This document shows, piece after piece, positions 2,061 through 47,560 of a stretch of DNA of 64,000 nt (its first letter is position 1; every line of letters begins with the position of its first letter). Under the pieces are notes generated by a model. That model saw nothing but the letters and a program-made list of their open reading frames with translations, searched no databases and was not told the DNA's origin. A program made the translations under genes and the position numbers. The DNA is taken from assembly GCA_964016885.1 (NCBI GenBank), contig OZ024742.1, positions 77,686,001 through 77,750,000 on the forward strand, given 5' to 3'. Source of the DNA: Eledone cirrhosa. Its lineage: Eukaryota.

Positions 2061-2299
2061 TTGAGCTCAGCCGTCGGGGTCCTACTCGTTCCTATATATA
2101 TATATATATATATATATATATATATAACGAAGGAAATGTGGTAAGGAACCAGGTGGACCATAACGCACCAAATTACTCAATACTTAGGGTAATAGAGTGG
2201 GTAATAGGAACGAGTAGGTCCCCGACGGCTGAGCTCAAGCCGTTTCGACTAGCCGTCGAGACGGCTTGAGCTCAGCCGTCGGGGTCCTACTCGTTCCTA
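2061..2299. repeat. Palindromic PLE-derived short element carrying a hammerhead 3' half (same family as 15718-16640)
   Basis: About 95-nt near-perfect hairpin TAGGAACGAGTAGG...CCTACTCGTTCCTA (2205-2299), plus an extra arm fragment at 2061-2093. Aligns by eye to 15718-15920. Confidence 0.75.
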
Positions 2300-2571
2300 T
2301 ATATATATACATATATATATATAGAGAGAGAGAGAGAGAGAGAGAGAGAGAGAGAGAGAGAGAGAGAGATAATTTATATATATATAGATATATATAATTT
2401 ATATATATATATATATATATATATATATATATATATATATATATATGTGAATATAGACATAGAATATTCGAAAATATTCTGTATGTTTATAATAAACATT
2501 TTGAAGACCTAATCGCTATAGAATAGAATACGTCACGTATTACAATTAGATTCTCGATAAAAGCAAGGGAA

Positions 2572-2614
2572 GTAATCTACGCGTTTCATTCTCGTTAGAA
2601 ATCATCAGGACTAC
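2572..2614 (-). ncRNA. Same hammerhead ribozyme on minus strand (3 copies: 2572, 2882, 3192)
   Basis: Exact reverse complement of 3560-3602. Confidence 0.9.
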
Positions 2615-3559
2615 ATATCCAGTGCTTTTATCGAGAATGACACAGCTAGAGACTTATAGAATACTTAGCTGTGTACAGGAACTGGTTTGAAAGAGCGGTT
2701 GCCGGTCCGGCAGAAATTAGAAATTGGAATAAATGCTCTGAAATAGCGATATATATGTGAATATAGACATAGAATATTCGAAAATATTCTGTATGTTTAT
2801 AATAAACATTTTGAAGACCTAATCGCTATAGAATAGAATACGTCACGTATTACAATTAGATTCTCGATAAAAGCAAGGGAAGTAATCTACGCGTTTCATT
2901 CTCGTTAGAAATCATCAGGACTACATATCCAGTGCTTTTATCGAGAATGACACAGCTAGAGACTTATAGAATACTTAGCTGTGTACAGGAACTGGTTTGA
3001 AAGAGCGGTTGCCGGTCCGGCAGAAATTAGAAATTGGAATAAATGCTCTGAAATAGCGATATATATGTGAATATAGACATAGAATATTCGAAAATATTCT
3101 GTATGTTTATAATAAACATTTTGAAGACCTAATCGCTATACAATAGAATACGTCACGTATTACAATTAGATTCTCGATAAAAGCAAGGGAAGTAATCTAC
3201 GCGTTTCATTCTCGTTAGAAATCATCAGGACTACATATCCAGTGCTTTTATCGAGAATGACACAGCTAGAGACTTATAGAATACTTAGCTGTGTACAGGA
3301 ACTGGTTTGAAAGAGCGGTTGCCGGTCCGGCAGAAATTAGAAATTGGAATAAATGCTCTGAAATAGCGATATATATGTGAATATAGACATAGAATATTCG
3401 AAAATATTCTGTATGTTTATAATAAACATTTTGAAGACCTAATCGCTATAGAATAGAATACGTCACGTATTACAACCGCTCTTTCAAACCAGTTCCTGTA
3501 CACAGCTAAGTATTCTATAAGTCTCTAGCTGTGTCATTCTCGATAAAAGCACTGGATAT

Positions 3560-3602
3560 GTAGTCCTGATGATTTCTAACGAGAATGAAACGCGTAGATT
3601 AC
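3560..3602 (+). ncRNA. Minimal type I hammerhead ribozyme (first of 10 plus-strand copies: 3560, 3870, 4180, 4490, 4800, 5110, 5420, 5730, 6040, 6350)
   Basis: GUAGUC-CUGAUGA-u UUCU aacg AGAA u-GAAA-CGCG-UA/GAUUAC. Stem I is GUAGUC/GAUUAC, the core is conserved, stem III is palindromic, and the predicted cleavage is after GUA (3596). Confidence 0.9.
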
Positions 3603-44100: not shown

Positions 44101-45816
44101 TGAACAGATGCTATTTACCTATGCCATTACCAATCAATACGTTAATCTTGTAAACTGTTTACGTTCGTTTCAATTTAAAATTAATAGCTGCATAGACATT
44201 AAATCTTGGCATCGTATTCATACAGCATTGATGTTTAATGATTCAAATTTTAATCTTAATTAGCACATAAAATTACATGAAAGTAATATAAATAAAAGAA
44301 AGATGAGTATATCCATTCACACACATAATATCATATGTATATATGAACGTTTTTGTTTGTTTCATCTACTTTTATGTGCTAACCACATATTTTACATTAA
44401 TATAGGTGTATGTATTCTTGTGGGTGTATGTGAGTGGGAGTATATGAGTAGTTTTGAGTGTACATATCGATATATTTTGGAATTATTTCACACACCACCA
44501 TCGTATATTTCAAATAAACTAAACATTGAAAAAGTTCATGGATTATGACGATGGCGTACATGATATCTATCATATTCTTGCAGAGTTAATACAGCTTTGA
44601 AATGTAACTAACTTAATATATGCATATACATCGTGGCATATATATATATATATATATATACATATATAAATGTGTGTGTATGTGTGTGTGTGTGTGTGTA
44701 GAAATTCAATATGACATTTTCTTATTCGCCTTTATAAATATATATATAAATATATATATATATATATATATATATATATATATATATATATATATATATA
44801 TATATATTAACGTATATACTTGTAGATATAGATAGATAAACATTATAAATGGGAATGACTGAATAGATATAATTAATAAATCAATACACGAGTTTTTCTT
44901 TTGTTTGTTTATCAAGTATTAATTTTTGATTTACCATATTCTAAATTTTAGAATATGGTTTTAGAATCTAAAACATCCTTCTTCTTTTACATCTTTCATG
45001 TTGCCACTCTCGATAACATATTTTAATTAAATATTCATATAATTCAATATATACCTATATGTATATATATATATATATATATATATAAATATATATATAT
45101 ATATATATATATATATATATATATATATATATATACAAATATATATATATATATATATACAAATATATATATATATATATATATATACAAATATATATAT
45201 ATATATATACAAATATATATATATATATATATATATATATATATATATATATATATATATATACACAAATATATATATATATATATATATATATATATAT
45301 ATATACACAAATATATATATATATATATATATATATATATATATATACAAATATATATATATATACAAATATATATTATATATATATATATATATATATA
45401 TATATATACAAATATATATATATATACAAATATATATTATATATATATATATATATATATATATATATATATATATATATATATATATATATATATATAT
45501 ATATATATATACAAATATATATATATATATATATATATATATATATATATACAAATATATATATATATATATATATATATATATATATATATATACATAT
45601 ATATATATATATATATATATATATATACATATATATATATATATATATATACATATATATATATATATATATATATATATATATATACAAATATATATAT
45701 ATATATATATATATATATCTCTCTCTCTATATATATATATATATATATATATATATATATATATCACTGTCTCTCTCTATATATATACATATGTATAAAT
45801 GTGTGTGTGTGTGTGT

Positions 45817-45990
45817 ATCATTATTTAATATAGAAATGGCTGCTACATGACTAGAACTGTTCCTTTCGAATGAAATTTACAGGAATACCTGTACGAATGA
45901 AACAGCTCTAGTCCTATAGAAGCCACATCTATATTGAATGATAATGTTTAAACTCTATTAATGTATTGAGTATCATTTTAATTGTGGATC
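45817..45990. repeat. Degenerate relative of the 16989-17310 inverted HHR element
   Basis: Inverted arms 45817-45868 / 45894-45942. GAATGAAACAGCTCTAGTCCTATAGAA...ATCTATATT...ACTCT...ATGTATTGAGTA aligns with 17197-17268, but the core is mutated. Confidence 0.7.
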
Positions 45991-46375
45991 TATATATCTA
46001 TATATCTATATATATATATGTGTGTGTGTGTATGTGTGTGTGTAGAGGGAGAGAGAGATAGAGTGAAAGAGAGAGAGAGAAAGATAGAGAGAGAAAGATA
46101 GAGAGAGAGTTTGAGAGAAAGCATTAGATTTTCTGAGACATTCATCCATTGTATATCAAATATATATATATATGTGTGTGTGTGTGTGTGTGTGTTTGTG
46201 TTATATATATATATATATATATATATATAGTAATAATAATAAATTTGAAGGCTAAAATCCAAGGAGGGCTCGATAAGGATAAATATATATTAAATATATA
46301 AGAACCATAGAGCAAATATTTATTAAAATAACATTAAAGTTTAATAAATATATATATATATATATATATATATAT

Positions 46376-47560
46376 ATAGTTAAGGAATGAAGAGTAACAT
46401 GGTTGGCTGTACAATAAGGGTTTATTTAAAGTACTGACAATTGTTTCATTGATCAGGTGAGTCTAGAGTTCGCTAATCGCTTGAGGTTGCGTCATTCGAT
46501 CTCCAATACATTATTTACCTCTGGTCAACACATCATAGTACGTAGATATGAAAGTAATTAACTCGAGGCAAGACTTATATATAAAAATAGCGTATAATCA
46601 AAACAATAACAACAATAATAAAATAGCGTATAATCAAAACAATAACATTAATAATAAAATATGCATGGTAAATAGGTAGAGAAGTTACAGATGTGAAAAG
46701 TAAAAAGTAAAATATAAGATAGGGTACATTAATAAATAAGAAAATGAGACAAAGGAAATTATAAAGAAATAAATAAGTGAGAGCGTGTAAGTACATAGTA
46801 GTAGTTTTTGAGTAAGTGTTCTTCTAAGGATTCGCTGGTGAGTTTAGAGCTAACATGAGAAACCAAATTCGAGATGTACATAGATACGTGTAGAGGGTCC
46901 GATAAAAGAAAAGACAATAAATTAGAGATTAATTGGCGGATACATGTATGATATTTATGGGCTAGGGATGACGGAACATTTGATAAACGCTTGTTGTAAA
47001 TGTTTTGCTGATTGTTCTATCTTAATGGAGTTGATGGTGTCTCAGGGAGAGAGGGTGAAAGAAATGTTCAGAGATTTATGATCCAGTGACCAGTTAGCCG
47101 TTTGATAGCTAATAGCAGTGCGATGGTGTGTATTCTATATGTTAAAATCTAGTTAGTTCAGTACTAATTTTGGAATTTCTGGTTCAAATCATGGTGGTTT
47201 GAAGTTTGTAAATCTAGTAGCTATTTTATGCTTACAGAAAATAGATCTTTCTATTTTGCTGTTAAGCAGCATCCCATCGTACCTTAAGATATGTAGTAGT
47301 TCTAAATTAAAAAGCCCGCAGTGGGACATACAGTTGCTGTAGGCTTTTGCTACCGATAATTTTGACAAGCTAATCTTATATTCTAGGTTTTTGTCCTTAG
47401 GCTGCCAGATTTTATTGGCGAACTCTAGACTCACTTGATCAACGAAACAATTGTCAATACTTTAAATAAACCCTTTATTGTACAGCCAATCATGTTACTC
47501 TTCATTCCTTAACTATTATTACTCCAAGTACAACCTGCATAGAAATTACCGCGAACTCGC
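46376..47560 (-). mobile_element. 5'-truncated Naiad-like PLE with inverted pseudo-LTR (IR 46376-46477 / 47414-47516)
   Basis: ORF remnant ANKIWQPKDKNLEYKI...AKAY...CGL..LE...LLNSKIE...FCKHK (GIY-YIG C-terminus). About 100-bp terminal inverted repeat containing GAAACAATTGTC (HHR stem III + GUC). Confidence 0.75.

Follow-up and report, generated by a model that had tools for sequence, protein, structure and literature searches.

Inverted retrozyme arrays at (TA)n tracts of Eledone cirrhosa were probably inserted by a PLE enzyme

It is likely that the hammerhead motifs in a 64,000-nt stretch of the Eledone cirrhosa genome (GCA_964016885.1, contig OZ024742.1, 77,686,001-77,750,000, forward strand; the window hereafter) are TA-flanked repeats of Hydra PLEs together with retrozymes, and that the retrozyme arrays were written in one step by a PLE enzyme copying circular RNA on both sides of a cut (TA)n tract. 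The route of animal retrozymes into genomes has so far been hypothetical, with co-occurrence and shared ribozymes as the grounds on which helper PLEs and copying by a rolling circle were proposed. Family A, a retrozyme with a unit of 310 bp, offers genomic evidence suggesting that a PLE enzyme inserts such arrays in a single event, probably by rolling-circle reverse transcription. At its own junctions this young family shows a PLE tail, inverted arms and a single-haplotype bottleneck, and the same genome also carries open Hydra ORFs, which are candidate enzymes.

The window holds 21 hammerhead motifs from seven mobile-element insertions; seven events are counted rather than 20, since 13 of the cores form one family A array. 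A type I descriptor gave 20 matches, namely these 13 cores and those at 17049, 17182, 18090, 22341, 27634, 29888 and 30380, against a mean of 0.05 and a maximum of one in 100 block shuffles of non-repeat sequence. The 21st motif, at 26635, has a stem II bulge that hid it from the descriptor; its fold shows a stem I of 8 bp and a long stem II. The motifs are genuine as predicted type I hammerheads, having CUGANGA and GAAA cores, an NUH site and stems I-III (20 by descriptor, 26635 by folding). An Rfam scan returned no hammerhead among the 150 of 226 matches listed, which were mostly TA artefacts (mir-297 and similar). A further candidate core at 50619 on the minus strand was left out; its stems are broken and it has no second copy in the fetched loci. 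Li et al. (10.64898/2026.07.22.740005) report that one of nine predicted dimers was active in self-cleavage. A preliminary description of this DNA had claimed about 20 intact cores in six families, and all 20 that it listed are present, as are the six families, while a seventh, at 29888, had been overlooked. The half or mutated cores that it placed at 2.2, 15.9, 16.5, 19.7, 27.2, 45.9, 46.4 and 47.4 kb are likewise present as remnants, and belong to family G (2.1-2.3, 15.7-15.9, 16.4-16.6 and 19.7 kb), family E (27.2 kb, G5A), family B (45.9 kb) and family H (46.4-47.7 kb). The features of the window are the following.

2061..2092, plus strand: piece of a Hydra PLE terminal repeat (family G) with part of stem III and the short 3' end
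2127..2298: family G inverted pair, long end left and short end right; truncation within stem II has removed the core's 5' half from both arms
2439..3475, minus strand: left arm of the family A retrozyme array, 3.35 units (310 bp each) with cores at 2608, 2918 and 3228; short 3' end at position 139, counted from the predicted cleavage site
3473..6547, plus strand: right arm of the family A retrozyme array, 9.9 units with 10 cores between 3566 and 6356; long 3' end at position 165, counted likewise; 3-nt overlap with the left arm
15720..15921: family G inverted pair, truncated in stem II
16436..16638: another inverted pair of family G, likewise broken off in stem II
16988..17309: family B, 3' ends of a Hydra PLE as an inverted pair, short end left and long end right; intact cores at 17049 (minus) and 17182 (plus)
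18006..23298, minus strand: family C Hydra PLE, partial tandem, one core at 18090 and another at 22341; the segments 18006-19018 and 22257-23298 are direct repeats, 86% alike with a microsatellite inside; broken ORF with RT and C-terminal GIY-YIG at about 20006-22087
19664..19705, minus strand: decayed family G remnant within the family C element
25521..26824, plus strand: family D, 5'-truncated Hydra PLE with the last ~40 codons, 3' UTR, hammerhead at 26635 and long end
27037..27877, plus strand: family E retrozyme, two ~420-bp units 93% alike, short end; core at 27634 intact, core at about 27216 mutated
29316..29648, minus strand: putative Neptune-like PLE piece, C-terminal GIY-YIG
29764..30033, plus strand: family I element, type I hammerhead at 29888 with C10.1-A11.1 and palindromic stem III; core recurs in at least six other fetched loci
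30077..30759, minus strand: family F, one ~700-bp non-coding unit, hammerhead at 30380 with a 95-nt stem II region
30976..31062, minus strand: family E fragment without core
45835..45990: decayed family B-like inverted remnant
46379..47669: family H inverted pair with mutated core (A9U variant, C3A on the minus arm); Hydra endonuclease fragment at 47225-47410 (minus)
52412..53785, minus strand: putative Neptune-like PLE relic with RT, CX4CxxC linker and C-terminal EN, outside the range of the preliminary description

Judged by motifs, families B, C, D and G are terminal repeats of Hydra-clade PLEs, and the fragment in family H is likewise Hydra. At 20.0-22.1, 25.5 and 47.2-47.4 kb, the relics match ORFs of Hydra type, in which the endonuclease is C-terminal. 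RT and C-terminal GIY-YIG lie in a single ORF at loci L142, L182 and L343 and at 20.0-22.1 kb in the window; the RWK-type motif of these four ORFs reads RWR, RWR, RWK and RWT, all four carry DKT and the CxCx5C linker, and Pfam gave a weak GIY-YIG match (E=0.012) and no RT match in the Hydra ORFs. Open ORFs are found in family B at L142 (713 aa), framed by the hammerhead repeat, and in family D at L343 (about 800 aa), with the hammerhead repeat on both sides. The Hydra families here combine a canonical hammerhead in the terminal repeat with a (TA)n target, and the family G core is a U3-A8 variant of the kind described in PMC4209133. Copies of B, C, D and G are mostly 5'-truncated.

The Hydra EN+ PLEs of Craig et al. 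(2021, PMC8557442) share with these families the RWK-type motif, DKT, CxCx5C, the C-terminal GIY-YIG, canonical terminal-repeat hammerheads, (TA)n targets, inverted 5'-truncated copies and a tail at one end. However, their tails are 30-40 nt as compared to about 65-90 nt here, they are generally under 3 kb while family B reaches about 6 kb (its 3.7-kb 3' UTR being mostly TA/TG microsatellite), and each Hydra family here has thousands to tens of thousands of terminal-repeat copies. Three relics had previously been taken for Naiad-like. The Naiad clade is similar in its (TA)n target and its inverted and tandem structure, but has an N-terminal endonuclease and no canonical hammerhead (PMC8557442), whereas in all relics examined here the endonuclease is C-terminal and the hammerheads are canonical, and the three are of Hydra type. 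Two relics, at 29.3-29.6 and 52.4-53.8 kb, may indeed be Neptune-like, as had been suggested, or else Nematis, although the second lies beyond the range that had been described; the Neptune type is marked by a CX2-5CxxC linker ahead of a C-terminal GIY-YIG that has an internal Cys/His motif, and of these features the CX4CxxC linker is found at 52.4-53.3 kb, while at 29.3 kb there is an EN fragment alone.

The hammerhead families are spread genome-wide, with about 72,000 exact motif copies. Family A copies were found by pattern searches of the species' own genome, and the loci sampled outside the window are the first ones on one contig rather than a random draw. The preliminary description had presented the window as a locus-wide ecosystem, the ingredients of which were already known; the window turns out to be ordinary for this genome. 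It has 15 family clusters in 64 kb versus 12 in 100 kb of arbitrarily chosen DNA, and since this roughly twofold density is in step with the TA content (14.9% versus 6.3%), the window is best seen as a TA-rich sample of a genome-wide state. The proposal that (TA)n tracts act as a landing pad is borne out in that 116 of 129 3' ends adjoin (TA)4, an enrichment over the 8.8% of random positions, but the association is not specific to PLEs, as 20 of 30 control copies of an RTE LINE are also TA-adjacent (a first LINE control pattern, of 3 copies only, was left out). Targeting of (TA)n was already known for Hydra and Naiad PLEs (PMC8557442). Not all elements are clearly bounded by (TA)n, as had been stated: by eye, 11 of the 15 listed ones are flanked on both sides, the others being the remnants at 19.7, 31.0 and 45.9 kb and family E at its left end. 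As to the suggestion that such RNAs may extend the TA tracts, a microsatellite lies in the 3' UTR of two of the four Hydra families, pure TA making up 32% of it in family B and 13% in family C and none in D and G.

By alignment, family A has two fixed 3' ends, 118-139 and 163-170 nt after the predicted cleavage site, and two fixed ends likewise occur in families B (28/94 nt), C (39-42/107 nt), G (20/98 nt) and E (220/276 nt). All 55 complete two-armed family A insertions, 10 of them not chosen by their ends and 45 chosen on a long end, consist of two diverging tandem arrays, of which one has the short 3' end and the other the long one; among the 45, the partner end is short in every case and TA-adjacent in 43. 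The same rule holds in the inverted pairs of Hydra families (B 10/10, G 7/7, C 5/5), and such strict pairing constrains PLE dimer models. Complete family A insertions with a single arm number four. Arms reach up to 15 units, with one over 27, and join with a 0-5 nt overlap or a short gap. Paralogous repeats gave no clean pair of empty and filled sites among the 55 insertions. Long-read chimeras can yield inverted duplications, TA tracts make up 6% of the sampled DNA, and the RTE LINE is also often TA-adjacent, all of which would suit an assembly or sequencing artefact or a chance co-location in TA-rich DNA. This explanation is nevertheless very improbable, given that the arms are unequal in length and end, the flanks are unique, the end rule holds in 55/55 and an independent sequencing run contains unit-to-TA junctions at both end classes (loose ends 3735, 3766).

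The 5' ends of family A arms are spread evenly (p=0.44), and only 2 of 110 lie within 5 nt of the cleavage site, which indicates that the cut was not where the templates ended. In 31 of 55 insertions (p=0.42) the arm with the long end is the longer of the two, which suggests that neither arm is a copy-back of the other, and copy-back of the first cDNA was thus left unsupported. L1-type twin priming on one linear RNA was also rejected, as the long arm's 5' end and the short arm's 3' end do not coincide; the distance between them is 3-154 and evenly spread.

Family A comprises 14 haplotypes, and in 42 of 43 typed loci a single haplotype occupies all units of both arms, where the chance of a match is 0.19. 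Moreover, each of 11 variants confined to a single locus is fixed across every covered unit of the two arms, and variation otherwise consists of 60 single-unit changes and three mosaic sites. A single haplotype in both arms is also expected if one source locus is expressed in the cell concerned. Private changes amount to about one per insertion, and the insertions are very young. It is improbable that a monomer or dimer was inserted and the array later grown and homogenised by unequal crossover or gene conversion. This is the standard satellite route, it is raised for retrozyme tandems in the discussion of 10.64898/2026.07.22.740005, and it fits the unit variation in older family F arrays and in the 1.08-kb family B array. 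However, family A arms are of non-integer length with exact PLE ends, they show few private changes and almost no intermediate-frequency variants, and their haplotypes are identical across inverted arms, so that the junctions argue against later unequal crossover as the array source.

A more serious alternative, though still an unlikely one, is that the PLE machinery inserted the arrays not from a circle but from a long uncleaved read-through transcript of a homogeneous array, or from template-jumped monomers. Uncleaved linear RNA is the main in vitro substrate of the anole PLE (PMC11167929), every family shows reverse transcription running past the cleavage site, 21 of 30 arms in family G end within or ahead of stem II, the minimal stem III of family A may cleave slowly, and a mirrored variant at L288 fits a multimeric template. 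Yet daughter arrays could then not exceed the source in length, and such a template predicts mosaic inheritance instead of the fixed variants and few mosaic sites that are seen, while template jumps among pooled monomers would mix the haplotypes.

With a circle as the preferred template, a PLE protein, probably a dimer, would cut both strands within (TA)n, and reverse transcription would be primed at two internal start sites, one per strand. Linear PLE RNA would give two 5'-truncated inverted copies, a self-cleaved and re-ligated retrozyme circle would give two tandem arrays, and repair would join the two cDNA ends via microhomology. The anole PLE is reported to use two start sites and to extend both strands in vitro, and a dimer is predicted for it (PMC11167929); circular retrozyme RNAs are reported in PMC7229834. 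The family A unit folded as a circle reaches -67.8 kcal/mol (z=-4.4). The helper of the retrozymes probably belongs to a Hydra family that has open ORFs; a search by homology found none for family A in about 1.6 Mb of fetched DNA. For family B, a 12-unit array of the 3' end shows a route from a PLE terminal repeat to a tandem array. A bolder version, which we put forward tentatively, is that each family A locus is a frozen intermediate of two PLE subunits that rolled round one 310-nt circle after priming at two fixed RNA sites on opposite strands of the cut tract, that the ~1,400 very young insertions record germ-line rolling-circle TPRT, and that Hydra elements with their own TA target in the 3' UTR spawn circles by self-insertion and spread the microsatellite as cargo. 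For in vitro work, a defined RNA with two start sites is available in family A, as are a target and candidate enzymes.

Several observations weigh against the preferred explanation as a whole. Locus L276 is mosaic, with 276G in 7/7 units of one arm and 2/6 of the other, loci L288 and L289 each have one variant common to single units of both arms, and there are the four one-armed family A insertions. In addition, families A and B are alike only in a 28-nt ribozyme stretch (89%), family A was never seen joined to an ORF in the fetched loci, and the anole PLE mainly uses uncleaved linear RNA in vitro. Family F arrays belong here as well, since their units differ by 5-7% within an array and no inverted partner with a core was found in 4/4 arrays examined.

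Anolis Poseidon PAc (Frangieh et al. 2024, PMC11167929) is comparable in that two internal RT start sites define the tail, the target is AT-rich, both strands are extended and ribozyme cleavage is not needed for insertion, but it belongs to another clade, and its strands show no start-site difference in vitro, whereas short and long ends are paired here. Animal non-LTR retrozymes, as described by Cervera and de la Pena (2020, PMC7229834) and Li et al. (2026, 10.64898/2026.07.22.740005), are alike at the DNA level in their AT-rich non-coding tandem units with one type I hammerhead each, a strongly self-paired circle (predicted here) and co-occurrence with PLEs; a U-U mismatch at the helix II base is shared with the axolotl HHR_Amex2. 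The sections consulted propose PLE mobilisation and rolling-circle copying without such junction evidence, and the Eledone arrays differ in their divergent two-armed (TA)n insertions, short and long PLE ends and one haplotype per locus.

The 310-nt unit also closes as a circle in contigs of three sequencing runs with other organism labels. Horizontal transfer or circular RNA was rejected as an explanation; family G and the RTE repeat are present there in similar proportion, as expected of trace host DNA, and a tandem array gives the same contig. No RNA run was among the runs listed for this unit.

Families A, E and F are, from their sequence, non-coding retrozymes, with units of 310, 420-433 and 691-707 bp and one type I hammerhead each, and neither family A nor the fetched arrays of E and F contained a PLE ORF. 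The earlier picture of non-autonomous RNAs alongside helper PLEs thus applies to these three tandem, non-coding families, but not to B, C, D and G, which are repeats of autonomous Hydra PLEs. Family F has a single unit in the window and forms tandems at other sites of the genome. One family E array alternates in an a-b-a-b pattern (a-a 99%, b-b 100% and a-b 96% alike), as would be expected from a dimer circle.

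Family A, a non-coding retrozyme repeat with a hammerhead and a 310-bp unit, was sampled in 69 regions (the window, 10 chosen by core, and 58 chosen by the long one of its two fixed 3' ends beside TA). These hold 55 complete two-armed insertions and 4 one-armed ones, and a further 11, cut off at the edge of a region, were dropped. All 55 two-armed insertions are divergent, with one end lying 118–139 nt and the other 163–170 nt past the predicted cleavage site. For the 45 insertions selected on the long end, the other arm is always short (45/45) and lies beside TA in 43/45. The same pairing of short and long ends is seen in the inverted pairs of Hydra-clade Penelope-like elements (PLEs), namely in families B (10/10), G (7/7) and C (5/5). 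This pairing is the 'tail' found at one end of PLE insertions (PMC8557442), which has been mapped to two internal reverse-transcription start sites (PMC11167929); the PLE protein of the latter report, a predicted dimer, extends both strands. PLE hammerhead pairs on opposite strands, 100–700 bp apart, are already present in PMC4209133. A description of two-armed retrozyme arrays with a PLE tail was not found in a mainly open literature, on which supplements (figures S7 and S9 of PMC7229834 and the tables of 10.64898/2026.07.22.740005) may bear.

Family A arms measure 0.1–15 units, one cut arm exceeding 27, and the longer arm is random between the arm types (31/55). Their 5' ends are evenly spread (2/110 at the cleavage site), and the arm junctions overlap in 30/55, 29 of these by 1–5 nt. 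The long-end pattern has 728 forward matches in the genome, reverse counts being inflated by overlapping matches, which would correspond to about 1,400 family A insertions.

Haplotypes were typed at 43 loci with both arms longer than 330 nt. Fourteen were distinguished, and the two arms agree in 42/43 loci, where two random draws would agree with a chance of 0.19. Eleven variants confined to a single locus are fixed there in every covered unit of the two arms. Besides these, the arrays show 60 changes in single units and 3 mosaic sites. Variants fixed in all units are best explained by a monomer bottleneck; a linear multimer as template instead of a circle fits them less well and is unlikely, and the making of arrays by later crossover, which also fits them less well, is highly improbable. 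The identical haplotype of the two arms could also be accounted for by one active source locus, and one mosaic insertion (L276) counts against the monomer-circle reading. None of the 19 fixed variants falls at an invariant core position. Within the ribozyme they affect N7, loop II or wobble positions, or change U-U to A-U, in numbers too small to prove selection.

Circular retrozyme RNAs and their proposed mobilisation by PLEs have been described (PMC7229834, PMC4209133, PMC7761336). From the architecture, ends, haplotypes and flanks of family A, which are read directly, we infer that some PLE protein would cut (TA)n and prime one strand at the long site, the other strand at the short one; a monomer circle would then be copied repeatedly on both sides of the cut, and the cDNA ends would be joined by repair. 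No family A copy joined to an ORF was found, and inverted partners of family F arrays are missing in 4/4 regions, both of which count against this mechanism. In its junctions and haplotypes, family A gives a clear, testable record of retrozyme insertion. In addition, a family E array (L332, G000:C1:19313000-19319000) alternates 420- and 422-bp units in an a-b-a-b order, as expected from a dimeric circular template.

One rule was used for all five families tested: a 3' end was scored as TA-adjacent if a (TA)4 run started between -6 and +8 of its called position.

TA-adjacent 3' ends (7 read-through copies set aside in B, G, E and C) and exact motif counts in the genome
Family A: 19/21 ends; 4,054 motifs
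Family B: 28/28 ends; 4,165 motifs
Family C: 21/25 ends; 4,408 motifs
Family D: 22,841 motifs
Family E: 19/25 ends; 9,768 motifs
Family F: 808 motifs
Family G: 29/30 ends; 25,976 motifs
Family H: 12 motifs

The location of hammerhead elements at (TA)n above background, on which the idea of a landing pad had been staked beforehand, is borne out by 116/129 ends in five families against 8.8% of positions in background stretches; the loci were those first listed on contig C1, some form a pair of arms from a single insertion, and two of the C loci are duplicated sites. In a control, 20/30 copies of an RTE LINE have a TA-adjacent 3' tail, so TA tracts gather other retroelements too. This LINE family (L192-L221) has 10,764 exact copies of its 3' motif and a (TGA)n tail. 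In the 3.7-kb 3' UTR of family B, pure TA accounts for 32% and alternating purine-pyrimidine for 73%; the landmarks that interrupt it recur in copies from at least seven further regions. Pure TA makes up 13% of the family C 3' UTR and is absent from families D and G. Some Hydra RNAs thus have microsatellite as cargo.

The window lies at G000:C3:77686001-77750000 in a 3.0-Gb animal assembly, and a type I hammerhead descriptor gave 20 matches in it against a mean of 0.05 in 100 shuffles. About 20 intact hammerheads of six families had been claimed; 19 of the 20 listed cores are matched, and that at 26635, with a bulged stem II, folds correctly. The listed cores are thus present, but a seventh family, at 29888, had been left out; at least six further fetched loci share its core, stem I and palindromic stem III and vary in stem II. 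The 21 cores derive from seven insertions: 13 belong to family A, two each to B and C, and one each to D, E, F and I. Helix II of families A, B and E has a U-U mismatch at its base, like that of an axolotl retrozyme (PMC7229834). Half cores are also present as claimed, those of family G being arms truncated in stem II; the 5' half is kept in 9/30 sampled genomic copies and has the U3-A8 core variant already found in PMC4209133.

Open ORFs are framed by family B repeats (L142, 713 aa) and by family D (L343, ~800 aa), a 710-aa frame is flanked by family G (L182), and family C frames a broken ORF at 20.0–22.1 kb of the window; Pfam support for these ORFs is weak. The L142 element (G000:C1:14203000-14212999) spans about 6 kb, and its 3.7-kb 3' UTR is 73% TA/TG microsatellite. 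Naiads carry their endonuclease at the N-terminus and have no canonical hammerheads (PMC8557442), whereas the 25.5- and 47.2-kb relics match the C-terminus of Hydra proteins; judged by sequence, they are Hydra rather than Naiad-like. Those at 29.3 and 52.4–53.8 kb do look Neptune-like, as the preliminary description had it.

The families are genome-wide, with about 72,000 exact motif copies for A–H. The 64-kb window has 15 family clusters, or 16 if a rejected candidate at 50.6 kb is counted, against 12 in ten arbitrarily placed 10-kb stretches, a comparison biased in its favour by queries taken from it, and pure TA covers 14.9% against 6.3%. The window is not a special locus, and its ingredients are of known kinds. 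The preliminary description was largely right in observation, and its Naiad label and locus-specific 'ecosystem' framing fall away.

Several minor features were also recorded. A decayed hammerhead-like core at 50481-50700 (-) lies downstream of a Neptune-like relic; a second copy was not found among the fetched loci, and this candidate was rejected as a family cluster. A fragment of another PLE family occupies 38970-39164 (-), with related pieces near 37.8 kb, and a relative (L146:1723-4632) has an ~800-aa open frame whose N-terminus is Asn-rich, followed by RT and a GIY-YIG at the C-terminus. LINE relics with endonuclease and RT domains (Pfam) lie at 1-437, 11872-14746 (TA tracts on both sides), 55.9–59.2 kb and 60.1–64 kb. 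A repeated element contains a tRNA-like match at 32180-32235 (-) (40 bits to Rfam RF00005), probably a SINE head. A sister family of A (L151:3548-3987, L136:1540-1852), with a backbone 76–84% alike and similar short and long ends, has another hammerhead, whose core is of the U3-A8 type; this suggests an exchange of the ribozyme module in which the insertion signals were kept. Finally, twelve tandem units of ~1.08 kb (L148 and L149, G000:C1:83679783-83699011), each built from the end of the family B 3' UTR, its hammerhead and its long end, joined to a TA tract, probably represent a retrozyme that arose recently from a Hydra element.
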